Assembly (NCBI GenBank): GCA_045543555.1
Contig: JAZQMQ010000018.1
Location: forward strand, 10,985 to 74,984
Source of the DNA: Eubacteriales bacterium
Lineage (GTDB): Bacteria; Bacillota; Clostridia; Oscillospirales; CAG-272
Length of the DNA: 64,000 nucleotides
Direction: 5' to 3'
Made by a program: the position numbers and the translations under genes. The notes beneath the pieces were generated by a model that saw only the letters and a program-made list of their open reading frames with translations, made no database searches and had not been told where the DNA came from. Shown in pieces: positions 30,142-46,118 of this stretch. Numbering within the stretch: the first letter of the stretch is position 1; the number at the start of each line of letters is the position of its first letter.

Positions 30142-30807
30142 TTATTGACCAATAAGTTCAAAACGATTGCGTTTACTTTTTATCAGTCCTTCGTTGCAAA
30201 GCTTGCTTATTTCATTGCTTAATCCGCTTCGGTCAACTCCAAGATAATCGGCAAGCTCCTGACGGTCAAAGGGGATGACAAAAATGTTGCTTCCTGCTTT
30301 TTTTGATTGAATGCTGAGATACTTAAGAAGCTTTTCTCTTGTGGTTTTTCCTGATGTAATTTCAATGCGCTGATGGAGAATAATATTTTGTGTGGCGATG
30401 TCCTTCATTAAATTAAAAATTAATTGATGATGAAATCCGCATGCGTTTGAACAGGTATGAAGTATATGAGAGCATTCAATGAACATAACGTAGCTAGGCT
30501 CGTCTGCAATGACTGAAAAAGGGAGCTTTTTTATATCGGAGGCTGCAAATGCCTCGCAAAAGGTTTGTGAGGGAAGAACCTCGGAGAGAATTATACGATT
30601 CCCGTCGTAATCAAGAGAGGTAACGTGAAGTACACCGGATAAAACTATACCAATGTGACGTGCGCGGTTGCCCTCTGCCATCACGGTATATTTTTTGTCG
30701 AAAAAATCCACCCTTGCGCCGAGACAATTAAGCATTTTTAAAAGCATATCTCGCTCAATACCTAAAAAAAGAGGACAATTTTTTAAAATATCAAAATATT
30801 TTTCCAT
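30142..30807 (-). CDS. Crp/Fnr-family transcriptional regulator
   Basis: A cNMP-binding-like N-terminus and a C-terminal HTH, RQELADYLGVDRSGLSNEISKL. The start is placed at the ATG at 30807, which has GGAG upstream, because the longer ORF would include the palindromic operator. Confidence 0.85.
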   Translation of the reverse strand: MEKYFDILKNCPLFLGIERDMLLKMLNCLGARVDFFDKKYTVMAEGNRARHIGIVLSGVLHVTSLDYDGNRIILSEVLPSQTFCEAFAASDIKKLPFSVIADEPSYVMFIECSHILHTCSNACGFHHQLIFNLMKDIATQNIILHQRIEITSGKTTREKLLKYLSIQSKKAGSNIFVIPFDRQELADYLGVDRSGLSNEISKLCNEGLIKSKRNRFELIGQ

Positions 30808-30820
30808 ACTTTTCTCCATT

Positions 30821-30836
30821 TGTTGAAAATTCAACA
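30821..30836. promoter_or_regulatory. Perfect 16-bp palindrome TGTTGAAAATTCAACA, a candidate Crp/Fnr-family box in the divergent promoter region
   Basis: It has the 5-6-5 architecture of TGTGA-N6-TCACA-type sites. It is centred about 41.5 nt upstream of the TSS predicted from TATAAT at 30858-30863. Confidence 0.55.
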
Positions 30837-30896
30837 TACATATCATTTGTATTATACTATAATTAGTTCAGAAAATCAAGGAGAAACAAAAAGTTT

Positions 30897-31592
30897 ATGA
30901 AAAGAAAAATAATAAAAATAGACGATGAAAAGTGTAACGGTTGCGGCATTTGTGCTAAAGCTTGTCATGAGGGAGCTATCGAAATGATCAACGGTAAGGC
31001 TAAGCTTACCCGTGAAGATTACTGTGACGGTCTTGGTGATTGTCTCCCCGCTTGTCCTACAAACGCAATAAGCTTTGAGGAACGTGAAGCGCCGGCTTAT
31101 AATGAGGCAGCAGTCAGAGCGGCAAAGGAAGTAAAAAATGCAGAAAATCATTCTTGCGCCTGCCCCGGTTCACGCTCGCGGTCTATAAGCAGGGAAGGAC
31201 AGTATCGGCAAAAGAGTCAAACCACTCCCAGCCAGCTGATGCAGTGGCCATGTCAGCTTAAGCTCGTCCCGGTAAACGCTCCGTATTTCGATAATGCAGA
31301 TCTGCTTATTGCAGCTGACTGCGCTGCATATGCTTACGGAGGATTCCATCAGGACTTTATGAGAAACCGTATAACCCTTATAGGCTGTCCTAAGCTTGAC
31401 GAAGGGGATTATTCTGAAAAGCTAACGCAGATAATAGCGTTTAACAATATAAAAAGTGTCAAGGTGGTTCGTATGGAGGTTCCTTGTTGCGGAGGTATCG
31501 AAAATGCGGTAAAGCGTGCTTTGATGAATAGCGGAAAATTTATTCCGTGGCAGGTGATTACAATTACCACGGATGGAAAAATAATAGAATGA
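30897..31592 (+). CDS. 4Fe-4S dicluster ferredoxin-domain protein with a Cys-rich C-terminal domain
   Basis: CNGCGICAKACHEGAI and CDGLGDCLPACPTNAI are present. The C-terminal part contains ...GCPKLD...VPCCGG.... Confidence 0.75.
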   Translation: MKRKIIKIDDEKCNGCGICAKACHEGAIEMINGKAKLTREDYCDGLGDCLPACPTNAISFEEREAPAYNEAAVRAAKEVKNAENHSCACPGSRSRSISREGQYRQKSQTTPSQLMQWPCQLKLVPVNAPYFDNADLLIAADCAAYAYGGFHQDFMRNRITLIGCPKLDEGDYSEKLTQIIAFNNIKSVKVVRMEVPCCGGIENAVKRALMNSGKFIPWQVITITTDGKIIE

Positions 31593-31664
31593 AATAGATT
31601 TTCTATTGCAATACAAATAATAATATGATATAATCGCAAATGAATAAAAATGAGGTGGTTTAAT

Positions 31665-33455
31665 ATGTTTATTACAAACGACATAAAATATATAGGAGTA
31701 AACGACCATAAGGTGGATCTGTTCGAGGGACAGTATAAGGTGCCAAACGGTATGTCTTATAAGTCCTATGTGATTCTGGTTGAAAAGATCGCAGTTATGG
31801 ATACCGTGGACAGAAATTTTACACACGAATGGCTCGACAATCTTGAGAGTGTACTTGATGGCAGACATCCCGATTATCTTATAATTCAGCATATGGAGCC
31901 CGATCATTCGGCAAACATAATGAACTTTATGAGTGCCTATCCCGATGCGGTGATCGTATCCTCGGCAAAGGCATTTGCCATGATGAAAAATTACTTCGGC
32001 ACAGATTTTTCCGATTGCCGTATAGTAGTTGGCGAGGGTGACACCCTTACCCTCGGCAAGCACACCCTTGCATTCGTTGCAGCACCGATGGTCCACTGGC
32101 CCGAGGTAATCGTGACATACGACGTAACCGAAAAAATTCTTTTCTCCGCCGACGGCTTCGGTAAATTCGGAGCGCTCGACGTAAACGAGGAATGGGCGGA
32201 TGAGGCGAGACGCTACTATATCGGTATCGTCGGCAAGTACGGTGTGCAGGTGCAGGCGCTTCTCAAGAAGGCGGCAGGACTTGACATTGCGATGATCTGC
32301 CCCCTCCACGGACCTGTGCTCAGTGAAAATCTCGGCTATTACATCGGTCTTTACGATACCTGGTCAAGCTATCAAGCAGAGGAGGAGGGAATAGTAATTG
32401 CCTATACCTCCGTTTACGGAAACACCAAAAAGGCGGTAAATCTTCTTGCCGAAAAGCTCACCGAGGGCGGCGCTCCAAAGGTTATCGTTTATGACCTGGC
32501 AAGATGCGATATGGCTCAGGCAGTTTCCGATGCCTTCAGATACAGTAAGCTTGTACTTGCAACCACCACCTATAACGCCGACATTTTCCCCTTTATGCGC
32601 GAATTTATCGACCACCTTACCGAGCGTAGCTTCAAGAACCGCACCGTCGCTCTTATCGAAAACGGCAGCTGGGCCCCTCTTGCGGCAAAGGTTATGAAGG
32701 ATATGCTTGCGGTCTGCAAGAATATCACCTATACCGATACAACGGTGAAGATCCTCTCGGCTCTTAACGACGAAAGTCTGTTACAGCTTGATTCTCTTAC
32801 TGAGGAGCTTTGTCGCGAATACGTGGCAAGAGAAAGCTCAAGAGCGAATAAAAACGATCTTTCAGCTTTGTTCAATATTGGCTACGGTCTATATGTTGTT
32901 ACCTCTAATGATGGAAAGAAAGACAACGGCCTTATCGTAAACACTGTAACTCAGGTTACAAATACCCCAAACCGTATTGCAGTAACCATAAACAAGGCAA
33001 ATTACTCCCACCATATTATAAAACAGACGGGAACAATGAACATAAACTGTCTGTCTCAGGAAGCGCCCTTCTCGGTATTTGAAAGCTTCGGCTTTGTAAG
33101 CGGAAGAAACGTTGACAAATTTAAGGATTGTCAGCCTCTTCGTTCTGATAACGGCCTTGTTTTCCTACCCAAATATATCAATTCCTTCATGTCTCTCAAG
33201 GTAGAGCAGTATATCGATCTCGATACTCACGGTATGTTCATCTGCTCGGTCACCGAGGCGAGAGTTATCTCTGACCGTGAGACTATGACGTACACCTATT
33301 ATCAGAACAATGTCAAGCCCAAGCCCGTAACCGAGGGAGTGAAGGGATACGTCTGCAAGATCTGCGGATATATCTACGAGGGTGAGACTTTGCCCGACGA
33401 TTATATTTGCCCTTTGTGCAAGCACGGGGTAAGTGATTTCGAAAAAATTCAATAA
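31665..33455 (+). CDS. Multidomain flavodiiron protein: metallo-beta-lactamase-like diiron domain, flavodoxin, flavin-reductase-like domain and rubredoxin
   Basis: The diiron motif HMEPDH, flavodoxin IVIAYTSVYGNTKK, a Flavin_Reduct-like segment YGLYVVTSNDGKKDNGLIVNTVTQV, and C-terminal CKICGY...CPLCKHG. Confidence 0.85.
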   Translation: MFITNDIKYIGVNDHKVDLFEGQYKVPNGMSYKSYVILVEKIAVMDTVDRNFTHEWLDNLESVLDGRHPDYLIIQHMEPDHSANIMNFMSAYPDAVIVSSAKAFAMMKNYFGTDFSDCRIVVGEGDTLTLGKHTLAFVAAPMVHWPEVIVTYDVTEKILFSADGFGKFGALDVNEEWADEARRYYIGIVGKYGVQVQALLKKAAGLDIAMICPLHGPVLSENLGYYIGLYDTWSSYQAEEEGIVIAYTSVYGNTKKAVNLLAEKLTEGGAPKVIVYDLARCDMAQAVSDAFRYSKLVLATTTYNADIFPFMREFIDHLTERSFKNRTVALIENGSWAPLAAKVMKDMLAVCKNITYTDTTVKILSALNDESLLQLDSLTEELCREYVARESSRANKNDLSALFNIGYGLYVVTSNDGKKDNGLIVNTVTQVTNTPNRIAVTINKANYSHHIIKQTGTMNINCLSQEAPFSVFESFGFVSGRNVDKFKDCQPLRSDNGLVFLPKYINSFMSLKVEQYIDLDTHGMFICSVTEARVISDRETMTYTYYQNNVKPKPVTEGVKGYVCKICGYIYEGETLPDDYICPLCKHGVSDFEKIQ

Positions 33456-33471
33456 ATCAGGAGGAATTAAA

Positions 33472-33984
33472 ATGTTAAACGCAAAGGTACACGAGTTATT
33501 AAATCAGCAGATCAACAAAGAGTTCTATTCGGCATACCTCTATCTCGAATTTTCAAACTACTTTGAGGATAAGGGGCTGGACGGATTTGCAAACTGGTAT
33601 AAGATCCAGGCACAAGAGGAAAGGGATCACGCAATGCTCTTCTACACTTACCTGCAGAACGAGAATGCAAAGGTTACCCTTGATGCAATAGCTAAACCTG
33701 AATACGCAGCAGAATGTCATATGGATGTTTTAAAGGCAGGTCTTACTCATGAAGAATATGTAACCTCCCTTATCAACGACATATATGCTGCTGCTTACGA
33801 GGTAAAAGACTTCAGAACCATGCAGTTCCTTGACTGGTTTGTAAAAGAGCAGGGTGAGGAGGAGACCAACGCTAACGACCTGATTACCAAAATGGAGCTT
33901 TACGGCTCCGACCCCAGAAGTCTCTATATGCTCAATTCCGAGCTTGGAGCAAGGGTTTACAACGCACCCTCTTTGGTGCTTTAA
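33472..33984 (+). CDS. Ferritin (non-haem, Ftn-type)
   Basis: LNQQINKEFYSAYLYLEFSNYF...QAQEERDHAM. AGGAGG lies upstream of the ATG at 33472. Confidence 0.85.
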   Translation: MLNAKVHELLNQQINKEFYSAYLYLEFSNYFEDKGLDGFANWYKIQAQEERDHAMLFYTYLQNENAKVTLDAIAKPEYAAECHMDVLKAGLTHEEYVTSLINDIYAAAYEVKDFRTMQFLDWFVKEQGEEETNANDLITKMELYGSDPRSLYMLNSELGARVYNAPSLVL

Positions 33985-35549: not shown

Positions 35550-36956
35550 TCATGAAAGAGCATCGATGATCGCTTTTGCTGCGATTTTGCCCGAGCCCAT
35601 AGCTGAGATAACAGTAGCTGCGCCGGTAACAGCGTCACCGCCTGCGTAAACGGAGTTACGAGATGTTAGACCGTCCTCGTTTACAATGATTCCGCCGTGA
35701 CGGTTAACTTCAAGTCCTTCTGTAGTTGATTTGATAAGCGGATTCGGCGACGTACCGATTGACATTACGACGGTATCAACGTCTATAACGAATTCGCTGC
35801 CTTCAATAGATACAGGACGGCGTCTGCCCTTTTCGTCAGGTTCGCCGAGCTCCATTCTGACGCACTTCATACCCGTTACAAAGCCGTTCTTCGGATCTTT
35901 TGGATTCTGGGGATTATTGTAGCCAATTATCTCAGTGGGATTGCACAGAAGATTAAATTGGATACCTTCCTCTTCTGCGTGCTTAACCTCCTCGCGTCTT
36001 GCGGGAAGCTCCTCCATTGATCTGCGATAAACGACGTAAACCTTTTCTGCACCGAGACGAAGTGCGGTTCTTGCGGCATCCATAGCAACGTTTCCACCGC
36101 CTACAATCGCGACCCTTCCACCCTTCATGATAGGAGTTTCGGGGGTTTCGAGGTATGACTTCATTAAATTGCTTCTTGTCAGGAACTCATTGGCGGAGTA
36201 AACGCCCTTATATGCCTCGCCCGGAATATTCATGAAATTAGGAAGTCCAGCACCCGAACCAATGAATACAGCCTCATAGCCCATTTCAAACAGCTCGTCG
36301 ACAGTGAGAGTTTTACCTATTACAACGTTGGTTTCTATCTTAACTCCGAGTGCTTTAAGCCCCTCAACCTCCTTGGCAACGATTGCTTTGGGAAGACGGA
36401 ATTCGGGGATACCGTAAACAAGAACGCCGCCCGCGGTGTGAAGAGCCTCAAAAATGGTTACTTCAAAGCCAGCTTTGGCGAGATCTCCCGCACATGTAAG
36501 ACCCGAAGGTCCTGAACCAACTATTGCGACTCTGTGACCGTTACTTTCAGGACGAACCGGAGCCTCAGAACAGAAGGTGTTGTGCCAATCGGCAACAAAG
36601 CGTTCAAGACGGCCGATGCCAACGCTTTCGCCCTTAATACCGCGAACGCACTTGGATTCGCACTGATTTTCCTGAGGACATACTCTTCCGCAAACAGCAG
36701 GAAGGGAAGATGTTTTAGCTATGATCTGATAAGCACCCTCAAAGTCGCATTCCTTGATCTTGGCGATAAACTCGGGTATACGTATCTTAACGGGGCAACC
36801 CGAAACACAGGGCATATTCTTACAGTTAAGGCAACGGTTTGCCTCGTCGATTGCTATTTCTTCGGTGTAGCCCAGAGCAACCTCGTTGAAATTATGAGCA
36901 CGAACCTTGGCATCTTGTGTTGGCATCTCGTTTCTTTTAGGATTCATATTTGCCAT
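35550..36956 (-). CDS. nfnB: NfnB-type subunit (GltD-like, 'glutamate synthase small chain'-like) of NADH-dependent reduced ferredoxin:NADP oxidoreductase
   Basis: N-terminal Cys clusters CLNCKNMPCVSGCP...CGRVCPQENQCESKC and two Rossmann motifs, VAIVGSGPSGL and VAIVGGGNVAMD. It is paired with a PyrK-like subunit. Confidence 0.8.
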   Translation of the reverse strand: MANMNPKRNEMPTQDAKVRAHNFNEVALGYTEEIAIDEANRCLNCKNMPCVSGCPVKIRIPEFIAKIKECDFEGAYQIIAKTSSLPAVCGRVCPQENQCESKCVRGIKGESVGIGRLERFVADWHNTFCSEAPVRPESNGHRVAIVGSGPSGLTCAGDLAKAGFEVTIFEALHTAGGVLVYGIPEFRLPKAIVAKEVEGLKALGVKIETNVVIGKTLTVDELFEMGYEAVFIGSGAGLPNFMNIPGEAYKGVYSANEFLTRSNLMKSYLETPETPIMKGGRVAIVGGGNVAMDAARTALRLGAEKVYVVYRRSMEELPARREEVKHAEEEGIQFNLLCNPTEIIGYNNPQNPKDPKNGFVTGMKCVRMELGEPDEKGRRRPVSIEGSEFVIDVDTVVMSIGTSPNPLIKSTTEGLEVNRHGGIIVNEDGLTSRNSVYAGGDAVTGAATVISAMGSGKIAAKAIIDALS

Positions 36957-36958
36957 TT

Positions 36959-37813
36959 TTAATGTATCTCCTTTTTGAAGAGATTGCATGCCTCGTCGTG
37001 AGCGTGTCGCTCAAAATCGGCATACATTCTGCCTCTGGACATTGCTTCGTCAAAATCTATTTCGTAGCCGTTGAAATCAGGTCCGTCCACACAAGCAAAC
37101 TTGGTAACCTTCTTACCGTCAACGTTAAGAGTGAGTCTGCAGCCGCCGCACATTCCGGTGCCGTCGATCATAATGGGGTTCATGGAAACGGTTACCGGTG
37201 TACCGAAGGGCTTTGCTGTAGCAACTACGAATTTCATCATGATAAGCGGACCGATGGTTATGATCATATCGAATTTCTCGCCTGATTCAAGCATTTGCTT
37301 TAAGGGCAATGTAACGTTACCGTGCTCGCCGTAGGAGCCATCGTCGGTCATAATGCGGAGCGTGTCTGAGCAAGCTCTGAACTCATTTTCAAGAATGAGC
37401 AAATCCTTGTTTCTGAATCCGATGATGCTTGTTACTGTAGCCCCCATATTGTGAAGTGCTTCGGCGATGGGCATTGCGATAGCGCAGCCAACTCCGCCAC
37501 CAACGATGCAAACCTTCTTTAGCCCTTCAAGATGGGTTGCAACACCGAGAGGACCCACGAAATCCTGAATGTAGTCGCCTTCTTCCTTGTGCGAAAGCTT
37601 TTCGGTGGTAGCTCCGACTACTTGGAATATGATTTTAACGCCGCCTCTTGCGGTATCAACGCCTGCAACTGTGAGGGGGATTCTTTCCCCCGTTTCGTTA
37701 ACGCGTAAAATGATGAACTGCCCCGGCTTTGCCTTATTTGCAACCAACGGAGCTTCGATCCAAAGCTGAATAACAGTAGGATTTAAGACTTTTTTTTCTA
37801 AGATTCTGTACAT
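36959..37813 (-). CDS. nfnA: NfnA-type subunit (PyrK-like FAD/NAD-binding, 2Fe-2S)
   Basis: MYRILEKKVLNPTVIQLWIEAP...GERIPLTVAG...DGTGMCGGCR. Confidence 0.8.
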   Translation of the reverse strand: MYRILEKKVLNPTVIQLWIEAPLVANKAKPGQFIILRVNETGERIPLTVAGVDTARGGVKIIFQVVGATTEKLSHKEEGDYIQDFVGPLGVATHLEGLKKVCIVGGGVGCAIAMPIAEALHNMGATVTSIIGFRNKDLLILENEFRACSDTLRIMTDDGSYGEHGNVTLPLKQMLESGEKFDMIITIGPLIMMKFVVATAKPFGTPVTVSMNPIMIDGTGMCGGCRLTLNVDGKKVTKFACVDGPDFNGYEIDFDEAMSRGRMYADFERHAHDEACNLFKKEIH

Positions 37814-37873: not shown

Positions 37874-38368
37874 TCATATCTTCCACTTTTTTGATTTTTC
37901 AACGAGAATACCCGAAACGAAGCCTATCAGGAAACCTGCGATCACTCCGCTGATAAGGAGTGCGGGGAGATAGAAGGCTATTTCGGAGGTTTGCGTCCAA
38001 AAGCAAGCTGCAATTATCTGTCCTATATTGTGAAGAATACCCCCCACGATACTTACTGTAATGCAGGAAAACAGCTTGGTCTTTTTTAGTAAGATCATTC
38101 CGAGCAGACTCAAGACCGCTCCTGCGAGGCTGAAGGTTATCGTTTGAATATTTCCGAAAAGCAGCGAGACAAGGAAAATCCTGATCAGGCTTACCGTTAC
38201 CGCTTCCTTCCAACCGATTCGGTAAAGAAGAAATACGATTATCAGATTCGGCAAACCAACCTTGATACCCGGAAGTGCAACAAGCGGAGGTATTTGACTT
38301 TCAACAAACGAAAGGATCATGGCAAGTCCGATAGACAAGCCCAAAAAAGATATTTTTTTAGACTTCAT
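37874..38368 (-). CDS. Gx transporter family membrane protein (Hpre_diP_synt_I-like)
   Basis: MKSKKISFLGLSIGLAMILSFVESQIPPLVALPGIKVGLPNLIIVFLLY... with five TM helices. The start is placed at an internal ATG, since the long ORF N-terminus is non-membrane and Arg-rich. Confidence 0.7.
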   Translation of the reverse strand: MKSKKISFLGLSIGLAMILSFVESQIPPLVALPGIKVGLPNLIIVFLLYRIGWKEAVTVSLIRIFLVSLLFGNIQTITFSLAGAVLSLLGMILLKKTKLFSCITVSIVGGILHNIGQIIAACFWTQTSEIAFYLPALLISGVIAGFLIGFVSGILVEKSKKWKI

Positions 38369-38394
38369 ATGCCCCTTTCCTTTCTTTGTATTTA

Positions 38395-38748
38395 TTAACC
38401 TATAAGCTCGGGTGCGCTGTCGTCTGCTCCGTAAACCGTGACTGTTAATCGGTTGGGCAGGCAGGTTATCGTTTCGCCGGTCTGATCGATTTTGCCCTGC
38501 TTTACACACAGATGATCGGGACAGCTTGCAGAAATGAGATATGCTTTGCCTTTTTCTATTCGGAGACAGTTCGTTCCGCCGTTGAGCTCGTATTCGCCGT
38601 CCTCGGATAAGCTGTATCGTTCAACCTCTTTGCCGTCCACACGAATCACAACGTATGCTCCGTCTTTTTTTGAAAATGTTACGGCAACAATCACGATAAT
38701 TATCGCGATCAGAATGATACCAATAAGTATGAAATCATTTTTTTTCAT
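38395..38748 (-). CDS. NusG domain II-containing (DUF1312) TM-anchored protein
   Basis: An N-terminal TM is followed by VVIRVDGKEVERYSLSEDGEYEL...ASCPDHLCVKQGKI...ITCLPNRL. Confidence 0.7.
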   Translation of the reverse strand: MKKNDFILIGIILIAIIIVIVAVTFSKKDGAYVVIRVDGKEVERYSLSEDGEYELNGGTNCLRIEKGKAYLISASCPDHLCVKQGKIDQTGETITCLPNRLTVTVYGADDSAPELIG

Positions 38749-38787: not shown

Positions 38788-39849
38788 TCATTTTCTGATC
38801 AAAATTTCAAGTCCTGCGGTATAATATTGGGTTCCGTCGCCGGTTATCCATAGTACCTCAACGTTACCTAACTTGTTCGCAAGCGCAAGTCCGTCCTCAT
38901 AGCTCATTACGAATAGAGCTGTGGACAAGGCGTCTGCTAAAGCGCTGTCGGGAGTGATTATCGTTACCGATCTGAAATGATCCGCGGGCATTAAAGTGTC
39001 CTTATCGATTATGTGGTGGTATCTTTTGCCATCGACCGAGAAAAACCTTTCATAATCTCCCGAGGTTACGCAGGACGTGTCTGAAAGTGTGAGTGTCATA
39101 GCATATTTACCGGTATCGGAAGGGTCCTTTATTCCCGTACCCCATCCTGTGCCGTCTGGCTTATGACCTATGATGCGAATGTTACCGCCGATATTGAGCA
39201 CGTAGCTGCTTGCTCCGACTGAGCGCAGATATTCCGCCGCCTTTTCAGTTGCGTATCCCTTACCTAAAGCGCCCACGTCGATGGATGCTTTCGGATCGCT
39301 TATACGGACGGTCAAATTTGTTTCATCTATTTCAAGCAGGGAAATGTCGGTGTGATCTGCCGCCTCTTTAAGAGCTTCCATTGACGGAATTGTGGCGCTT
39401 GACGGGTCATTTGCCGCTTCTGTACGGCAATCGTGCCAATGACGCAAAACTGAGCCCATCATAATGTTCACTTCGCCGCTTGTGATGTCATAAAAGCTCT
39501 TGGCATAAACGAGAAAATCGATCAGCTTTTTATCAACCTTTACAGGCTCACCGCCTGCATTCAGGTTGATTGTCTTCAGGTTGTTGACTCCTGAAAATTC
39601 ATAATAGATATTGAACAGTGCATGGTATTCCTCAAGTATGGCAGAAACGCCGTTGCAGTGTGCCTCAAAGTCCTTTTGGGACTCTTCTGCGTAGCTGTAA
39701 ACATACGAAACCGTGTCAAAAAAGGAGAAATACATCATTCCCCGAGGTTCATATTTTTCTTCCCTAATGGCAGATTTAGGGCAGCCCGTCAAAAAGACGA
39801 GCAGCCCCAAAACAATGCATAAGAAAGCGGAAGATTTGAATATCTTCAA
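38788..39849 (-). CDS. apbE: FAD:protein FMN transferase (ApbE/Ftp) lipoprotein
   Basis: Lipobox FLTGC. ApbE blocks are present: FDITSGEVNI, DVGALGKGYA, VTSGDYERFF..GKRYHHIIDP-like. Confidence 0.85.
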   Translation of the reverse strand: MKIFKSSAFLCIVLGLLVFLTGCPKSAIREEKYEPRGMMYFSFFDTVSYVYSYAEESQKDFEAHCNGVSAILEEYHALFNIYYEFSGVNNLKTINLNAGGEPVKVDKKLIDFLVYAKSFYDITSGEVNIMMGSVLRHWHDCRTEAANDPSSATIPSMEALKEAADHTDISLLEIDETNLTVRISDPKASIDVGALGKGYATEKAAEYLRSVGASSYVLNIGGNIRIIGHKPDGTGWGTGIKDPSDTGKYAMTLTLSDTSCVTSGDYERFFSVDGKRYHHIIDKDTLMPADHFRSVTIITPDSALADALSTALFVMSYEDGLALANKLGNVEVLWITGDGTQYYTAGLEILIRK

Positions 39850-39876: not shown

Positions 39877-40965
39877 TTATCTTGCGTTGGTAGCAGCCTT
39901 AGCCATTACAGCCTTTATAGCGGTGATCTGAATGGTGCAGCCTGCAGCAAGAAGATCGGTATCTGTGGTCATCTGGTAGCCGAGAGAGTTTTCGGAGACA
40001 GCCATGTTAGCAACCTCGGTTGCGGTCATGCCGACAACGTGCTTGGAGAACGCTTCGGACTGGAGGTACCACTCAAGAACCTTACCGTCGTTGTTGGGAT
40101 CGTAGTTGGGGCCGTAGTTAACAGCGGGAGACATGTTGTATGCTTCCTTGAGGTTACGCTTGGTGTTAACGTAGGTAGCCTCAACGACCTCACCTGCGGT
40201 ATTGATGGTGATCTTGGGCTGAATTGCATCATTAAGAGCAGCGATAATCTTGCCGTCTGCAACAACTGCAGCAGCGAAATCGGAGTACATAGCAACAAGA
40301 CCGTTTTCATCGGCGGTAGCAGCAGTGGAGTCAGCAGCGCTGGTGGAAGCAGCAACACCGAGAGTGAACTTAGCTGCGGTCTTGAATGTCATACCCTGAT
40401 CATCGTTGCAAGCAGCAACAACCGCGTCTCTGAACTCATCGATCTGAATGGTACAGCCTGCAGCGAGAAGAGCCTCGTCGGTAGAGATCATATAGCCTGC
40501 GCCTGATCCTTCGGAAGCAGCAGCCTTAGTGGTCATTGCAGCGATCTCGGCAGCGGTCTTTCCTACTACGTAGTTTTCGAATGCCTTAGCCTGATCATAC
40601 CATTCCTTTACGATACCGTCGCCGTTCCAGTCCATTCCGTAGCCAAGAGCAGCAGCCATGCCGTAAGCATCGCCCTTTTCTGCTTTGGTCTGGAAGGAAG
40701 CTGTAGCATCAACAGCACCATTAGCAATATTCATTTTATTTTGAGCAACATCGATACGGCAGAGAACTATTTTACCGTCCTTGTCTGTTACGACTGTAGC
40801 AACTGTAGCATCAACCTGAGCGTTTTCGGCCGTGGAGCTTGCGGTACTTACTACTATTCCCATGCCGAGCTTGTACTCTGCTTCGGTGGTCTTTTTATTC
40901 TCGGTGCAAGCAACAACGGAGAGAGCCATTACTACACAGAGAACGAGCGCGAGGAGTTTCTTCAT
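39877..40965 (-). CDS. Lipoprotein made of two homologous halves of about 160 aa, function unknown (possible FMN_bind-like fold)
   Basis: Lipobox VVAC. Both halves end in GY.(I/M).T(D).(A/D)LLAAGCTIQI. Both also contain DGKI(V/I) and W(Y)..(A/S)(K/E)AF..(Y/H)VVG(K/M)TA.E(I/V)A.M. Confidence 0.6.
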   Translation of the reverse strand: MKKLLALVLCVVMALSVVACTENKKTTEAEYKLGMGIVVSTASSTAENAQVDATVATVVTDKDGKIVLCRIDVAQNKMNIANGAVDATASFQTKAEKGDAYGMAAALGYGMDWNGDGIVKEWYDQAKAFENYVVGKTAAEIAAMTTKAAASEGSGAGYMISTDEALLAAGCTIQIDEFRDAVVAACNDDQGMTFKTAAKFTLGVAASTSAADSTAATADENGLVAMYSDFAAAVVADGKIIAALNDAIQPKITINTAGEVVEATYVNTKRNLKEAYNMSPAVNYGPNYDPNNDGKVLEWYLQSEAFSKHVVGMTATEVANMAVSENSLGYQMTTDTDLLAAGCTIQITAIKAVMAKAATNAR

Positions 40966-41072
40966 TGTGAAATCCGTCCTTTTTGTAATAAAATGTTATA
41001 CAATACGACGCAACACCGCTTGTTTTCTTGTGTTAAAACATATAATGAATTGCAATCGAATGTATCCGATAT

Positions 41073-41101
41073 ATTTTATCATAGACAGCAAATTTTGTCA
41101 A
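41073..41101 (-). promoter_or_regulatory. Sigma-A promoter (minus strand) for the lipoprotein-apbE-...-nfnAB unit
   Basis: On the minus strand: TTGACA (41101-41096), a 17-nt spacer, TAAAAT (41078-41073). Confidence 0.6.
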
Positions 41102-41205
41102 TGGTTTTTCAAGCATTTTTGTGTTATGAAGCCTCTGAAATGGAACTTGTGGTGTTATTTATAAAAATTCCCACAAAAGCACTAAAAATAATGTTTTGCA
41201 GGCTA

Positions 41206-41234
41206 TTGAAAAAACGTTACAAATATGTTATAAT
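41206..41234 (+). promoter_or_regulatory. Sigma-A promoter immediately upstream of rnfD
   Basis: TTGAAA at 41206-41211, a 17-nt spacer, TGtTATAAT at 41226-41234. Confidence 0.65.
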
Positions 41235-41303
41235 GTGTCGAATACGCAAAACATTCATTACCGGTATATCAAATAATATTGGCAAATAAACAAGGAGAAG
41301 AAA

Positions 41304-42179
41304 ATGGATAATTTGGCGGTATCGAATTCGATTTCCCAAAACGGTGGATCCAAGGTTAGAAGAGCTATGCTTGACGTAATTATCGCTCTTTTTCCCGCGG
41401 TGATAGCCGCAATAGTGTTTTTTAAGCTTGATGCTTTAGTACTGATCTCGGTATGTGTCGTCACTGCGGTGATTTCCGAGATGGTCTTCAATTTGGTATG
41501 TAAGAGAAAACAGACGGTGTCCGATCTCAGTGCGGTCGTTACAGGTCTTTTGCTTGCACTTTCGCTCCCTGCGGACGCAACGGTGTGGCAATGTGTTGTA
41601 GGCTCGTTGTTTGCGATCGTGATTGTAAAGTGTGCATTTGGAGGAATAGGATATAATTTCGCCAATCCCTCTGTTGCGGCAAGGGTACTGCTTATCGTTG
41701 CCTTCGGAACGGCTGCTTCGGGAACTGAAGGTGAGCTCCCGTCTTACGTTGATATGCTTTTATCGAATCGCGGAGGTTTGATCGGTGAGGCGTGTGCGGC
41801 AGCACTTCTGGTTGGAGGAATATACCTTATTATCCGCAGGGCTATAAGCTGGTATGCTCCCCTTACGTACATAGTCGGGGTATTTGCGCTTTCGTTTGCT
41901 ATCACACAGGATGTAAAGCTCGCTCTTTACTATGTTGTAAGCGGAGGAGTAATGCTCGGAGCTATCTTTATGGCGTGCGATCCCGTTACCTCTCCCAAAA
42001 AGTGCTTTGGTAAGATAATTTTCGCCCTTTGCTGTGCTGTTATAACAGTGCTCATTCGTGTTTACGGCACAAATTCCGAAGGAGCAACGTTCTTTGCAAT
42101 ACTTCTTATGAATATCAGTTGCCCCTATATCGACAGAATGTTTGAGAAAAAACAGACAAATGAGGAGGTTGCAAAATAA
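41304..42179 (+). CDS. rnfD: Rnf complex subunit D (short form, 291 aa)
   Basis: DLSAVVTGLLLALSLP, KCAFGGIGYNFANPSVAAR and GEACAAALLVGGIYLI are present. The expected D..(S/T)GATPL loop is replaced by GTAASGTEGEL. Confidence 0.8.
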   Translation: MDNLAVSNSISQNGGSKVRRAMLDVIIALFPAVIAAIVFFKLDALVLISVCVVTAVISEMVFNLVCKRKQTVSDLSAVVTGLLLALSLPADATVWQCVVGSLFAIVIVKCAFGGIGYNFANPSVAARVLLIVAFGTAASGTEGELPSYVDMLLSNRGGLIGEACAAALLVGGIYLIIRRAISWYAPLTYIVGVFALSFAITQDVKLALYYVVSGGVMLGAIFMACDPVTSPKKCFGKIIFALCCAVITVLIRVYGTNSEGATFFAILLMNISCPYIDRMFEKKQTNEEVAK

Positions 42180-43396
42180 TGAAGAATAATTTGAAACCTA
42201 CCATAACGTTAAGTGCCATCTGCGTTGTTGTGGCTCTTCTTTTGTCGGTGATCAATATGATCACAGGTCCAATCATTGAGGCACAGAGAAATGCTGCGGC
42301 AAACGGTGCGCTTCTTGTTGTAATGCCCAACGGAACTGGGTTTGAGGAGCTGAATGCAGCCGAGCTCGGACTTTCGGATGCCGTAACTAACGTTTATAAG
42401 GAAACGTCAGGAAAGGGATATGTTTTCCGAGTCGTATCAAACGGATACAAGCCCGGAATGGTCGTCATGGTTGGCGTTGATTCCGATGGTAAGGTTACCG
42501 GAAGCAAATGTCTTGAGACACAGGATACCTTCGGTAAGGAACCACAGATCGATGGCAAGTATAACGGACAAACACTTGCAGATTTTTCTCCCGTAATCCT
42601 CACGGGAGCGACGATGACCAGCAATGGATATCGCGATGCAGTCAATATTGCACTTCAGTCGTTCGTTCTCGCTTCCGGCGGAAAGCTTGATCCGTCAATT
42701 GAGCTTGAGGGTAAGATTCCGGAGCTTGTTCCTGTATTCAAGGACCTTGTTGCAGTAGAGGCGTCGGGTAATATTGTTAAGGCTCTCAAGGCAAAGAACG
42801 ATACGGGATTTGCATATATAATCAAGAACGGCGAAGCATATTACGTTGCTGCTGTAAACGCTATGGGCGTATGCACGGTATATGATTCTGAAGGCAACGA
42901 CATAACCGCGGAAAGCGAAGCAATCATTGCCGAGGCTAAGGCTCACGCTGCAGCAAATCAGGTGTCCTATAATGAAGCACTTAAGAAAAATGCGGAGAGT
43001 ATGATGCCTGGTGCAACGAATTTTGCGGATGTTGAGCTTAATACGTTCAATACAGTCGTTTCTGCAGTAAGCTTTACAGTTGACGGCGCGACTTATTACG
43101 GCTTCTATTCCAGAAGCGTCGGCTTCCGCCAGATGGACGTCTTCATCATCATCGATGAGAACGGCGCGATCGCAAAGATTAACGCCAAAGAATTTATCTT
43201 CGATAAAGAATACTTTGCTAACTTTGCAGGTATGAACGTGGGAGAATATAAGGCGGGATTTGAAGGCCTTACTTCAGAAACCTGGAACGGCGATGCGGCA
43301 ATTATAGCAACTGCTACCATGACGTCCAATGCAATGAAGGAATCCACAAGCGATGCATTTGAGGCATTTAACTCGATCAAAGGAGGAGAACAGTAA
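42179..43396 (+). CDS. rnfG: Rnf complex subunit G, double length (405 aa) with two FMN-attachment-type motifs
   Basis: An N-terminal TM is present. The first motif is ILTGATMTSNGYRDAV and the second is IATATMTSNAMKEST. The start overlaps the rnfD stop (TAATG). Confidence 0.8.
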   Translation: MKNNLKPTITLSAICVVVALLLSVINMITGPIIEAQRNAAANGALLVVMPNGTGFEELNAAELGLSDAVTNVYKETSGKGYVFRVVSNGYKPGMVVMVGVDSDGKVTGSKCLETQDTFGKEPQIDGKYNGQTLADFSPVILTGATMTSNGYRDAVNIALQSFVLASGGKLDPSIELEGKIPELVPVFKDLVAVEASGNIVKALKAKNDTGFAYIIKNGEAYYVAAVNAMGVCTVYDSEGNDITAESEAIIAEAKAHAAANQVSYNEALKKNAESMMPGATNFADVELNTFNTVVSAVSFTVDGATYYGFYSRSVGFRQMDVFIIIDENGAIAKINAKEFIFDKEYFANFAGMNVGEYKAGFEGLTSETWNGDAAIIATATMTSNAMKESTSDAFEAFNSIKGGEQ

Positions 43397-44100
43397 TGAA
43401 AAACAATAAATTAGCTATACTCCTTCGCGGTATTATTACCGAAAATCCCGTACTTATCCTTATTCTCGGTACCTGTCCCACTCTTGCGGTAACAGGAAAC
43501 ATTATTTCAGCTATTTCGATGGGACTTGCGGCAACAGTGGTTTTGACCTGCTCAAACGCTGTTATTTCCGCACTTCGAAAGGTTATTCCCGACACCGTTC
43601 GAGTTCCTTGTTATATCGTCATCATTGCCGCATTCGTAACAGCGGTGCAGATGCTTCTTCAGGCATTTCTTCCTTCAATATATGAAATGCTCGGGGTATA
43701 TCTCGCCCTGATCGTCGTTAACTGCGTTATTCTCGGCAGAGCCGAAATGTTTGCACGTAAAAACACCGTAATAGATTCGATTTTCGACGGAATAGGAATG
43801 GGCGGAGGATTTATTCTGGCACTATTCCTTATGGCGTTTATCCGTGAGGTGTTTGGTGTCGGAAGCTTCGCGGGAATTGAGCTTGGCTTCATGAAGAGCT
43901 TTACAATTCCTGTTCTTGCTCAGGCCCCGGGTGGATTCTTGGTATACGGTATACTTATTGCGGTTATGAATAAGCTTACGGAAAAGAAGGGCGGAGTTAA
44001 GAAAAAGAGCTTCAGCTGTGAGGGCTGTCCATCCGCACATATTTGTCAGAAGAGTGTATGTATTGCCAAGGTAGAAAAGGAGGACGCTGAAAATGTTTAA
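43396..44100 (+). CDS. rnfE: Rnf complex subunit E with a Cys-rich C-terminal tail
   Basis: NPVLILILGTCPTLAVT is present. The tail is KKKSFSCEGCPSAHICQKSVCIAKVEKEDAENV. Confidence 0.85.
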   Translation: MKNNKLAILLRGIITENPVLILILGTCPTLAVTGNIISAISMGLAATVVLTCSNAVISALRKVIPDTVRVPCYIVIIAAFVTAVQMLLQAFLPSIYEMLGVYLALIVVNCVILGRAEMFARKNTVIDSIFDGIGMGGGFILALFLMAFIREVFGVGSFAGIELGFMKSFTIPVLAQAPGGFLVYGILIAVMNKLTEKKGGVKKKSFSCEGCPSAHICQKSVCIAKVEKEDAENV

Positions 44101-44686
44101 GGAGCTTGTACTCATACTTATGGGCGGAGTTCTCGTAAATAACTACGTCCTAAACCAGTTCCTCGGAATCTGTCCTTTCCTTGGTGTTTCAAAAAAGGTC
44201 AATCAGGCAAGCGGAATGGGCTTTGCGGTTATATTCGTTATGCTTTGTGCTACTGCAGCAACATGGCCGATACACAAATATATACTCGTTCCCCAAAAGC
44301 TTGAGTATCTTCAGACGATCGTATTTATTCTTGTGATTGCGACTCTCGTTCAGTTTGTTGAGATAGTTCTCAAGAGATATATTCCGTCGCTTCATGCATC
44401 ACTCGGAATTTACCTTCCTCTGATCACTACAAACTGCGCGGTTCTTGGTGTTACGATCAACAATATTTCGGACGGTTACAATTTCCTTGAATCTATGGTC
44501 TCATCCCTTGGTGTAGGTCTTGGATTCTTGCTGGCAATGTTGCTTTTCGCGGGTGTCCGCTCGAAGCTCGATGATTCGAATGCACCAAAATGCTTCCGCG
44601 GTCTTCCCGTTACACTTATTTCCGCGTCTATAGTTGCTATGGCATTCTATGGATTTGCAGGAATCGTTGAAAAGCTGTTGGCATAA
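44093..44686 (+). CDS. rnfA: Rnf complex subunit A
   Basis: NNYVLNQFLGICPFLGVS and LITTNCAVLGV. Confidence 0.85.
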   Translation: MFKELVLILMGGVLVNNYVLNQFLGICPFLGVSKKVNQASGMGFAVIFVMLCATAATWPIHKYILVPQKLEYLQTIVFILVIATLVQFVEIVLKRYIPSLHASLGIYLPLITTNCAVLGVTINNISDGYNFLESMVSSLGVGLGFLLAMLLFAGVRSKLDDSNAPKCFRGLPVTLISASIVAMAFYGFAGIVEKLLA

Positions 44687-44701
44687 GGAGGTAGGTATAT
44701 T

Positions 44702-45520
44702 ATGCAAATACTTATTCCGGTTCTTATTTGTCTTGGTATAGCGGCTGTATGCGCTATAATACTCACCGTGTCCACCGTGCTTTTCGGAGTGAAAGAGGAC
44801 GAAAAATTTTTGGCGGTACGCGATGCTCTCCCCGGTGCTAACTGCGGTGCTTGCGGATATAGCGGTTGTGACGGATATGCACGAGCTCTTTCGGAGGGTA
44901 AAATTACTGAGGCAAATCTCTGTATTCCCGGCGGAAGCAAAACAGCCGAGGAGATTGCCGCTTTGCTCGGTCTTGAAGCGGGCGAAGTTGTAAAAATGTT
45001 TGCGTATATCGGATGTAACGGAACCTGTACTGCATCCAAGAAGGACGAAAAGCACCTTCGCGACGGATTTTCTTCCTGTAAGGAAGCGGCGGCACACTGG
45101 GAGGGTGAAAACGTTTGCGTATTTGCCTGCATAGGTCTCGGAGACTGTGTGTCTTCTTGTCCCAATAACGCAATCGTTTTAACCGACGGCGTCGCAAAGG
45201 TTATTTCAAGTCTTTGTACAGGCTGTGGTCTTTGCGCAAAGACTTGTCCGCACGGAACCATACGTATGCTGAAAGAGGGAACGACCATGGCTATTGGCTG
45301 TTCCAATCATGACAAGGGCGCACTTACAAGAAAAATGTGTGTTAACGGCTGTATAGGATGTACTAAATGTGAGCGTACGTGTCCTAACGGTGCGATCACA
45401 ATGGTAAACAATCTTCCTGTTTTGAACTATGATAAGTGCTTAAGCTGCGGTCTTTGTGCAGAGGCGTGCCCAATTCACGCAATACATAAGGATGCTTTTA
45501 TATGCGACAAATGTATTTGA
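44702..45520 (+). CDS. rnfB: Rnf complex subunit B (polyferredoxin)
   Basis: An N-terminal TM, LPGANCGACGYSGCDGYA, then several CxxCxxCxxxCP motifs. Confidence 0.85.
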   Translation: MQILIPVLICLGIAAVCAIILTVSTVLFGVKEDEKFLAVRDALPGANCGACGYSGCDGYARALSEGKITEANLCIPGGSKTAEEIAALLGLEAGEVVKMFAYIGCNGTCTASKKDEKHLRDGFSSCKEAAAHWEGENVCVFACIGLGDCVSSCPNNAIVLTDGVAKVISSLCTGCGLCAKTCPHGTIRMLKEGTTMAIGCSNHDKGALTRKMCVNGCIGCTKCERTCPNGAITMVNNLPVLNYDKCLSCGLCAEACPIHAIHKDAFICDKCI

Positions 45521-45530
45521 TCGCATAATG

Positions 45531-45572
45531 AAAACCACCGAGAAGGTAATTGAATTGCCACTCGGTGGTTTT
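45531..45572 (+). terminator. Terminator after rnfB
   Basis: A 12-bp stem, aaaaccaccgag/ctcggtggtttt, with an 18-nt loop and a T-rich 3' side. Confidence 0.65.
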
Positions 45573-45756
45573 CTTTAGTGTTTGGAGCTGTCAAGGTGAT
45601 ATTAAGGTATTAAAATTTGAAAAAAGATACCTCAAAAGAACGGCAACTTAATATGGCAGAGAGTGTGTTTGACATATTATGAAATCGAAAATGTGAAAAG
45701 CTATATATCGCACTCGGTGTTTGCTGTAGCGCAATCTTTGAAAGAAAGAACGGTAA

Positions 45757-45908: not shown

Positions 45909-46118
45909 ATGGCTACTAAAAGCAATAAGACTGTAGTGCCTGAGGCACGTGCCGCACTTGATAAGTTCAAGATGGAGGCAGCAAACGAGGTTGGTGTAAA
46001 CCTCAATAATTCCTATAACGGTGACATCACCGCCCGTCAGGCAGGTTCCGTCGGCGGTCAGATGGTTAAGAAGATGATCGAGAAGTACGAAAACGATCTC
46101 AAGAACGGAAACAGATAA
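45909..46118 (+). CDS. Alpha/beta-type small acid-soluble spore protein
   Basis: VVPEARAALDKFKMEAANEVGV...QAGSVGGQMVKKMIE are both conserved SASP blocks. Confidence 0.9.
   Translation: MATKSNKTVVPEARAALDKFKMEAANEVGVNLNNSYNGDITARQAGSVGGQMVKKMIEKYENDLKNGNR

Follow-up and report, generated by a model that had tools for sequence, protein, structure and literature searches.

In many anaerobes, Rnf is the principal ferredoxin oxidase that conserves energy and, to our knowledge, every Rnf studied so far is a six-subunit machine that takes electrons from ferredoxin and hands them to nicotinamide adenine dinucleotide (NAD+). Here we describe an rnfDGEAB operon without rnfC, carried by a 64,000-nt stretch of DNA from a Eubacteriales bacterium of the CAG-272 lineage (contig JAZQMQ010000018.1, positions 10,985 to 74,984); this stretch is called the window below, and all coordinates are positions in it. 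The operon encodes a five-subunit Rnf without RnfC, and its nearest known counterparts are clusters with a multi-flavinylated RnfG and the two-subunit NQR/RNF-like systems. It is counted here as a new form of Rnf because full-text literature searches returned no report of a natural Rnf operon without RnfC or RnfB, but only engineered rnfC deletions. The reading that we favour, with a probability of about 0.55, is that it would represent a functional and conserved variant, a "half-Rnf" made up of RnfB, RnfA/E, RnfG and RnfD, which conducts electrons from ferredoxin to an acceptor on the outer face of the membrane.

The canonical RnfCDGEAB complex (structures 7ZC6, 9ERI and 8AHX) shares with the window operon five of its six subunits and the Firmicute order D-G-E-A-B, as well as the [2Fe-2S] ligands, a polyferredoxin RnfB, a flavinylatable RnfG and an ApbE gene nearby. 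Unlike it, the window operon has neither RnfC, nor the RnfD loop that carries flavin mononucleotide (FMN), nor the arm motifs by which RnfD binds RnfC, and its RnfG is twice the usual length, with a second FMN-type domain. A multi-flavinylated RnfG has been proposed as a side exit to extracytosolic acceptors (Meheust et al., 2021; PMC8238504). The RNF clusters of that study resemble the present one in combining RnfB with ApbE and an extended RnfG that has more than one predicted FMN site, but they were defined by RnfB alone, the branch was proposed as an addition to a complete complex, and neither a loss of RnfC, nor a loss of the RnfD FMN site, nor a mirror type without RnfB was reported there.

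The two-subunit NQR/RNF-like systems (Meheust et al., 2021; PMC11334425) are likewise reduced and are proposed to work one way, towards an extracytosolic FMN domain; moreover, their RnfD-like subunit also lacks the flavinylation threonine. In these systems, found mainly in Actinobacteria and the candidate phyla radiation (CPR), the RnfD-like domain is fused to PF00175, RnfA, RnfE and RnfB are absent and the donor is NAD(P)H, whereas the window encodes an unfused RnfD (291 amino acids, PF03116 only) together with RnfA, RnfE and RnfB, with ferredoxin on the donor side. As for Na+-NQR (NqrABCDEF), it shares the B/C/D/E core, but keeps NqrA, takes up electrons from NADH at NqrF and reduces quinone at NqrB via FMN and riboflavin. 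All Nqr models remain far under their cut-offs for the window proteins (nqrB, 116 bits against 350), and neither NqrF nor NqrA was found among the window open reading frames (ORFs) scanned. NqrA carries no cofactor, which offers a precedent for a terminal acceptor that is not an NAD+ bound by the RnfC-type subunit (PMC12174285). Finally, the Gram-positive flavin-based extracellular electron transfer of Light et al. (2018), in the summary given in PMC8238504, also relies on an ApbE-type transferase and, as its final carrier on the membrane side, a surface protein with two covalent FMNs. According to that summary, electrons flow from NADH through Ndh2 and quinone to EetA/B and PplA, whereas in the window the entry would be ferredoxin via RnfB. 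From this pathway only an ApbE homologue occurs in or near the operon, where no Ndh2, EetA/EetB, DmkA/B or PplA-type FMN_bind lipoprotein was found.

The rnfDGEAB operon and its clade

The five genes lie on the plus strand at 41304-45520, in the order rnfD-G-E-A-B, and were identified with both Pfam and NCBIfam. Four of them score over the curated Rnf cut-offs of NCBIfam: rnfD (41304-42179, 291 amino acids; PF03116, E = 8.6e-84; TIGR01946, 222.8 bits, cut-off 207), rnfE (43396-44100, 234 amino acids; TIGR01948, 213.6 bits, cut-off 213.4), rnfA (44093-44686, 197 amino acids; TIGR01943, 257 bits, cut-off 229.3) and rnfB (44702-45520, 272 amino acids; TIGR01944, 114.7 bits, cut-off 68.7; PF04060, E = 7.1e-11). 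The fifth, rnfG (42179-43396, 405 amino acids), is recognised by FMN_bind (52.7 bits, cut-off 22) and falls under the cut-off of the whole-protein model TIGR01947 (47.8 bits against 102) because of 240 extra residues. As the initial annotation of this DNA had described, the genes are intact and translationally coupled, with TAATG at the D/G and G/E junctions and an 8-nt overlap, ATGTTTAA, at E/A, and a putative near-consensus sigma-70-type promoter (TTGAAA-17-TATAAT with an upstream TG; 41206-41234, plus strand) sits 70 nt before the rnfD ATG. This promoter, identified by its match to 11 of 12 consensus positions, stands in a region with no general enrichment in promoter-like sites (13 against 10.4 +/- 3.5 in shuffles). 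Two relatives, L093 and L094, whose RnfD is 85% identical to that of the window, present a weaker promoter, TTGTAA-17-TAAGAT with TG, at the same position. Furthermore, the putative ribosome-binding site of rnfD, AAGGAG (41292-41297, plus strand), read from the sequence, is identical in both, and a terminator-like hairpin followed by a T tract, a pattern match, lies 37 nt past rnfB (45557-45579, plus strand).

RnfC is the subunit that binds NAD(H), with FMN and two [4Fe-4S] clusters, and the search for its gene rnfC in this genome covered the window. Its queries were ten proteins encoded upstream of rnfD in relatives, three of which were scanned and scored each above 450 bits with TIGR01945. 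In tblastn they returned only ferredoxin-motif noise from the window (E >= 0.002) and zero matches from the 338-bp intergenic region that precedes rnfD (40966-41303; GC about 0.30, against 0.45-0.50 within genes). In turn, a Pfam scan of 39 window ORFs, including all those of at least 300 amino acids, revealed no RnfC-like protein. The statements that the AT-rich spacer contains no remnant of RnfC, and that no ORF of the 64 kb encodes one, have thus held up.

Such an arrangement departs from that of ordinary relatives, represented here by two control sets. A scan of species-representative genomes with RnfD yielded 80 loci, at 34-50% identity, with canonical rnfCDGEAB, mostly from Oscillospiraceae and other Clostridia metagenome-assembled genomes (MAGs); rnfC lies directly upstream of rnfD in all 77 that have sufficient upstream sequence. 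A scan of metagenome contigs with a profile of the clade described below gave, among the matches listed, canonical operons only, at no more than 51% identity, and the same adjacency was observed in 49 of 50. Taken together, rnfC adjoins rnfD in 126 of 127 ordinary loci, which bears out the initial statement that the order is normally rnfCDGEAB; outside the clade, relatives keep rnfC essentially always.

The closest 120 RnfD proteins in a large protein database share 56-85% identity with that of the window, and the RnfC-less clade is monophyletic, with 100/100 neighbour-joining bootstraps. Its size is at least 120 database clusters and hundreds of clusters represent it; the relatives are all metagenome contigs or MAGs, and nine loci were inspected. 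The clade operon is present in the MAGs GCA_017411805.1, GCA_052846805.1, GCA_052848315.1 and GCA_045658465.1, among others. Whether close relatives share the layout had been proposed as a check, and they do: all nine independent loci with at least 1.4 kb of upstream sequence read rnfD-G-E-A-B with no RnfC within 10 kb. Moreover, eight relative contigs that were looked up carry rnfD, an rnfG of 405-421 amino acids, rnfE, rnfA and rnfB, and no similarity to RnfC was detected in 14 clade loci. What precedes rnfD differs from one locus to another (an MFS transporter; an unknown 499-amino-acid protein; a YqeK-type HD hydrolase; a HydABC-like hydrogenase; unknown large proteins; DUF2179; a 2-oxoacid:ferredoxin oxidoreductase with an amino-acid dehydrogenase; a 362-amino-acid lipoprotein, as in the window), and no substitute gene recurs beside rnfDGEAB across the nine contexts. 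The 499-amino-acid protein, encoded in L083, was considered as a divergent RnfC and rejected, having neither a family match nor any tblastn similarity to RnfC.

The ratio of nonsynonymous to synonymous substitution rates (dN/dS), computed against three relatives, is 0.11-0.14 for rnfD, 0.06-0.31 for rnfG, 0.06-0.07 for rnfE, 0.03-0.05 for rnfA and 0.07 for rnfB. All five genes are under purifying selection (0.03-0.31), RnfA, RnfE and RnfB being the most conserved subunits, and the operon is therefore maintained by selection. A decaying, functionless remnant left behind by an rnfC deletion is highly improbable: although cofactor residues have been lost from RnfD, which shows the lowest conservation among the four membrane subunits, the frames are intact under the low ratios just given, the layout is conserved across a clade of 56-85% identity with hundreds of database clusters, and promoter, ribosome-binding site and translational coupling have all been retained.

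Changes in RnfD and the ferredoxin side

In the Clostridium tetanomorphum structure, the N-terminal 20 residues of RnfD are buried inside RnfC and its C-terminal arm lies on RnfC; FMN is attached to Thr153, in the "five-helix linker", and electrons go on via riboflavin to RnfC (PMC9588780). The canonical route to RnfC requires this RnfD FMN (PMC9588780, PMC12174285). When 79 canonical RnfD proteins are compared with the 120 clade members, both arms turn out to be altered. The N-terminal Pro, present in 79/79 canonical proteins, occurs in about 48 of the 120, and the neighbouring His (75/79 canonical) is not among the common residues at its position in the clade; the window RnfD lacks this Pro-His motif. 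At the other end, the canonical Gly (78/79) gives way in the clade to a new conserved acidic tail, KK(E/Q)K-T-EEVAE. Clade RnfD proteins also display a Lys-Lys motif on the cytoplasmic side.

The FMN site itself has been lost in the window. Alignment of its RnfD with 9ERI_D and 7ZC6_D gives two blocks that skip the Thr153 region; about 18 residues are lacking when clade members are the reference, and about 37 when canonical proteins are. Alignments, with codon positions checked, place the scar of the deleted five-helix-linker loop (FGTAASGT) at 41703-41726 on the plus strand, where relatives have some 18-37 extra residues that include the flavinylation threonine of the motif (S/A)-G/A-A-T-P-L (Thr153 in PDB 7ZC6). 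This loop is deleted in 27 of the 120 clade members, the window included, with end-points that vary by group, and parsimony on the tree requires at least six independent losses. Neighbouring residues that line the FMN pocket go with the loop: at the position equivalent to Asn90, N is found in 88/93 intact members against 3/27 deleted ones, and at that equivalent to Ser284, S is found in 92/93 intact members, whereas the deleted ones mostly have P, F or V. A cryptic flavin site at the scar is unlikely from the alignment, because the five nearest relatives do not conserve AASGT and share no conserved Ser or Thr at this place. Conversely, the window RnfD keeps the equivalents of Asn124, Glu185 and Asp248, ion-path and riboflavin residues of C. 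tetanomorphum RnfD. The replacement of ATDY by ATDP, taken at one point as a sign of riboflavin loss, was rejected as such, since Azotobacter RnfD (8AHX) also has ATDP.

Two RnfD cysteines, C97 (41592-41594, in W-Q-C) and C110 (41631-41633, in K-C-A-F-G-G), are invariant in 120/120 clade members. They lie in transmembrane segments where canonical RnfD has Ala and Gln, and could be a new metal or disulfide site.

The state of RnfD bears on the idea that another cytoplasmic NAD(P)H or redox module, such as an NfnAB-like pair or a NuoF-like hydrogenase subunit, would sit on this subunit in the place of RnfC. Genes for NfnA/NfnB-like proteins (35550-37813) do adjoin the flavinylation genes of the window, one relative (L087) has an 87% identical NfnB and a HydABC-like hydrogenase just upstream of rnfD, and the new C-terminal tail and Lys-Lys motif of the clade would be in keeping with such a partner. 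But no candidate recurs in the nine contexts, any partner on the cytoplasmic face of RnfD would need the RnfD FMN, whose site is missing in the window, and NfnAB is known as a soluble enzyme, so that we regard this replacement as improbable. Of the interpretation offered in the initial annotation, the part that took the loss of rnfC as real and meaningful stands, while the suggested replacement partner is improbable, as no recurring substitute gene is found adjacent.

The ferredoxin-side branch, by contrast with these RnfD losses, is intact in sequence. RnfB is the ferredoxin-side entry module, and consists of an N-terminal anchor, a PF04060 Fe-S domain and polyferredoxin domains. Four cysteines of RnfA and RnfE hold a [2Fe-2S] cluster in the membrane (PMC12174285). 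All four are present in the window (RnfE C27 and C110, RnfA C27 and C115) and are invariant in canonical proteins (73/73 and 71/71) and in 8/8 clade loci. RnfE also has a cytoplasmic Cys-rich tail, C-x2-C-x5-C-x4-C (residues 208-222, 44017-44064), which is found in most canonical Oscillospiraceae-type RnfE proteins and in the RnfC-less clade; in the Rnf structures solved so far, no role of this tail is known to us.

On the outer side, RnfG is built from its membrane anchor and three domains, of which the first is an RnfG-type FMN domain and the last, beyond a middle domain, a second and putative FMN-type one. The predicted FMN sites are T145 in the first domain (motif T-G-A-T; codon 42611-42613, plus strand) and T380 in the terminal one (motif A-T-A-T; codon 43316-43318, plus strand). 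An AlphaFold2 model built with 54 homologues (predicted local distance difference test score, pLDDT, 87.5) shows that the terminal domain repeats the strand-and-helix pattern of the first, and in Foldseek the top PDB matches of the first domain are the RnfG chains 9ERI_G and 7ZC6_G, with NqrC chains also among the best. In this model, each of these two domains finishes with a long helix, and T145 and T380 lie at the N-terminal end of it, exactly where solved RnfG has its FMN threonine (PMC9588780). Furthermore, A379 and T380 are invariant in the RnfG family, and the relatives L088 and L090 have a canonical S-G-A-T in the terminal domain. Some RnfC-less operons encode an RnfG of 631-644 amino acids with one extra FMN-domain unit (L186:191-2086; P0123, P0165), and the length of the flavin chain would therefore vary within the clade.

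A sister operon without rnfB and the electron route

By following a 646-amino-acid homologue of RnfG, we found on nine independent contigs an operon type that mirrors that of the window. It reads lipoprotein, ApbE, rnfC, rnfD, rnfG (646 amino acids), rnfE', rnfA', NusG_II protein and Hpre_diP_synt_I protein (L175:5327-14334; also L176-L185), with no rnfB within 10 kb. The RnfD of this type has preserved the Pro-His arm, the flavin site V-A-G-A-T-P-L and the canonical C-terminus, whereas RnfE' and RnfA' have lost the four cluster cysteines (G, A, G and G instead) and RnfE' the Cys-rich tail. The relationship to the RnfC-less clade is close: ApbE, the NusG_II protein and the neighbouring membrane protein share 65-69% identity with their window counterparts, RnfD shares the two clade-specific invariant cysteines, and it branches as the sister of the clade in 93/100 neighbour-joining bootstraps. 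One lineage thus appears to have dropped RnfC along with the cofactor site that feeds it, and its sister RnfB along with the cofactor site that RnfB feeds. Complementary losses of this kind are to be expected where the missing subunit is really absent from each complex.

This comparison helps to weigh the possibility that the window encodes an ordinary six-subunit ferredoxin:NAD+ Rnf with its rnfC gene at another place in the genome, as the remainder of the genome outside the window is unseen. That rnf genes can separate in this lineage is illustrated by the very sister operon without rnfB; besides, most clade members have kept the RnfD FMN motif, and the equivalents of Asp248, Asn124 and Glu185 are retained in the window. 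We consider this explanation unlikely, since the window RnfD has lost the FMN loop that the canonical route needs (PMC9588780, PMC12174285), the clade, under purifying selection, has lost the loop on at least six occasions, the arms that bind RnfC are without their invariant residues, and 126 of 127 canonical relatives have rnfC beside rnfD. A canonical six-subunit enzyme served by a distant rnfC would indeed hardly be expected to lose its RnfD FMN again and again while under purifying selection. Because the sister operon type is RnfB-less, the comparison suggests that any rnfC elsewhere in the genome would belong to a separate complex without RnfB. Beyond the two answers initially envisaged, an rnfC encoded elsewhere or another partner in its place, the evidence points to a third one, in which the NAD(H) branch would have been abandoned, because the RnfC-less layout is clade-wide, the RnfD arms are altered and the RnfD FMN site is lost.

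Under the half-Rnf reading, we infer the following route. Reduced ferredoxin would deliver electrons to the polyferredoxin RnfB, from which they would reach first the [2Fe-2S] cluster that RnfA/E hold in the membrane and next a covalent FMN on T145 of RnfG, at the outer face, and from there a second FMN on T380. The latter would reduce an extracytoplasmic acceptor, which may be a redox protein of the surface, flavinylated or not, or else free flavin or RnfG from a complementary half-complex that contains RnfC. In ordinary Rnf, the FMN of RnfD and then riboflavin bring the electron back to RnfC and NAD+; here this return path would be interrupted for want of RnfC and of a place on RnfD where FMN could attach. 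RnfD would have been kept probably as a scaffold and perhaps as an ion channel.

Several observations weigh against this interpretation. The absence of rnfC is established for the 64-kb window, and the gene could be present elsewhere in the genome. Within the clade, 93 of 120 members retain the RnfD FMN motif, and in these RnfD may still carry electrons to something. The terminal domain of RnfG, taken alone, is sub-threshold for FMN_bind (E = 0.015, Pfam), and its T380 motif is A-T-A-T instead of the usual S/T-G-A-S/T. We identified no acceptor in the window, where the neighbouring lipoprotein has no recognisable redox fold, and this lipoprotein is absent from most clade loci. In addition, the trees are neighbour-joining trees, each built from a single protein.

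The same anatomy would also serve a machine working in reverse, in which an external donor reduces the RnfG flavins and the ion gradient drives the reduction of ferredoxin, all the more since Rnf is reversible in principle (PMC12174285). This direction seems doubtful: the 2-oxoacid:ferredoxin oxidoreductase of L091 and the hydrogenases of L087 yield ferredoxin, which suggests a need to dispose of it in the reduced state, and no external donor system was seen.

Returning to the half-Rnf reading, if the acceptor were the RnfG of the B-less half-complex, the pair would rebuild the transfer from ferredoxin to NAD+ via the outer face of the membrane. More tentatively, one can imagine that in a lineage of Clostridia Rnf was split into a ferredoxin half (RnfB-A/E-G-D) and an NADH half (RnfC-D-G with a cofactor-less A/E, as in L175), each wired to covalent flavins on the outer face and either exchanging electrons or feeding external acceptors.

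A selected five-subunit Rnf without its NAD module would extend the chemistry of Rnf to other acceptors and would link low-potential ferredoxin directly to the cell surface in Clostridia of the gut and rumen. It would also matter for the dispute over ion translocation, placed by one model in RnfD and gated by its FMN (Vitt, 2022) and by another at the [2Fe-2S] site of RnfA/E (Kumar, 2025, in the summary of PMC12174285). A complex whose RnfD is free of flavin constitutes a natural mutant in this respect, and whether it pumps makes the question testable. If it is true that the ferredoxin half pumps without the RnfD flavin, the coupling site would lie in the RnfB-RnfA/E-RnfG segment. The B-less sister, deprived of the [2Fe-2S] ligands, would be the reciprocal control.

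Surroundings of the operon

Counting from the rnfD side, the minus strand carries genes for a lipoprotein, ApbE, a NusG_II protein, an Hpre_diP_synt_I membrane protein and an NfnAB-like pair. The lipoprotein (39877-40965, 362 amino acids) belongs to an uncharacterised family and consists of two repeats, each ending L-L-x-A-G-C-T-I-Q. The family is large, with 2175 database matches at E <= 1e-5 and 60-70% identity among the best 120, and a homologue adjoins ApbE in L002, L093 and L175 too. It has no Pfam or NCBIfam match, FMN_bind included, and no sequence match in the PDB; its AlphaFold model (pLDDT 90.5) finds no fold match there with Foldseek either. A role as the FMN-binding acceptor is thus unsupported by sequence, family or fold; from its position the lipoprotein may be regarded as a candidate extracytoplasmic partner.

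ApbE is a flavin transferase that loads FMN onto RnfG and RnfD. The window encodes an ApbE-family FAD:protein FMN transferase (38788-39849, minus strand; Pfam and NCBIfam), which would be the enzyme that attaches FMN to RnfG. Next to it lie a NusG_II-domain protein (38395-38748, minus strand; Pfam) and an Hpre_diP_synt_I-family membrane protein (listed ORF 37874-38509, minus strand, with a likely start ATG near 38368), a pair that usually accompanies ApbE and rnf in relatives. The NfnAB-like pair (35550-37813, minus strand), adjoining the flavinylation genes, is composed of a GltD-like protein with Fer4_20 and Pyr_redox_2 domains and a DHODB_Fe-S_bind protein. In L087 (2-6138), the segment directly upstream of the RnfC-less rnfD encodes, besides the 87% identical NfnB and the HydABC-like bifurcating hydrogenase, a second [FeFe] hydrogenase.

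The intergenic region also harbours a putative divergent promoter for the lipoprotein-ApbE operon, TTGACA-17-TAAAAT with TG (41073-41101, minus strand), in a block that is strongly conserved in L093 and L094. This shared regulatory region includes a near-palindrome, TCGAATGTATCCGA, at 41056-41069, where L093 and L094 have the perfect palindrome TCGAATGTATTCGA; its block is far better conserved than the remaining spacer, and the palindrome may be an operator of the divergent promoter. No riboswitch or other RNA family was found in the window with Rfam.

Further away, a redox and oxygen-stress cluster (30142-33984) groups genes for a Crp/Fnr-type regulator, a 231-amino-acid protein with an N-terminal 2x[4Fe-4S] domain, a ferritin and a 601-amino-acid, flavodiiron-like fusion of metallo-beta-lactamase/ODP, flavodoxin, flavin reductase and rubredoxin. 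At 23188-25146 (plus strand) is encoded an oligopeptide-permease membrane subunit (OppC_N and BPD_transp_1) whose permease core is separated from the N-terminal helix by inserted RCC1-repeat (beta-propeller) domains; for an ABC permease, such a fusion is unusual. Lastly, a gene for an alpha/beta-type small acid-soluble spore protein lies just past rnfB (45909-46118, plus strand) and one for a CotH-family kinase at 16852-18555 (minus strand); they mark the organism as a spore former among the Clostridia.

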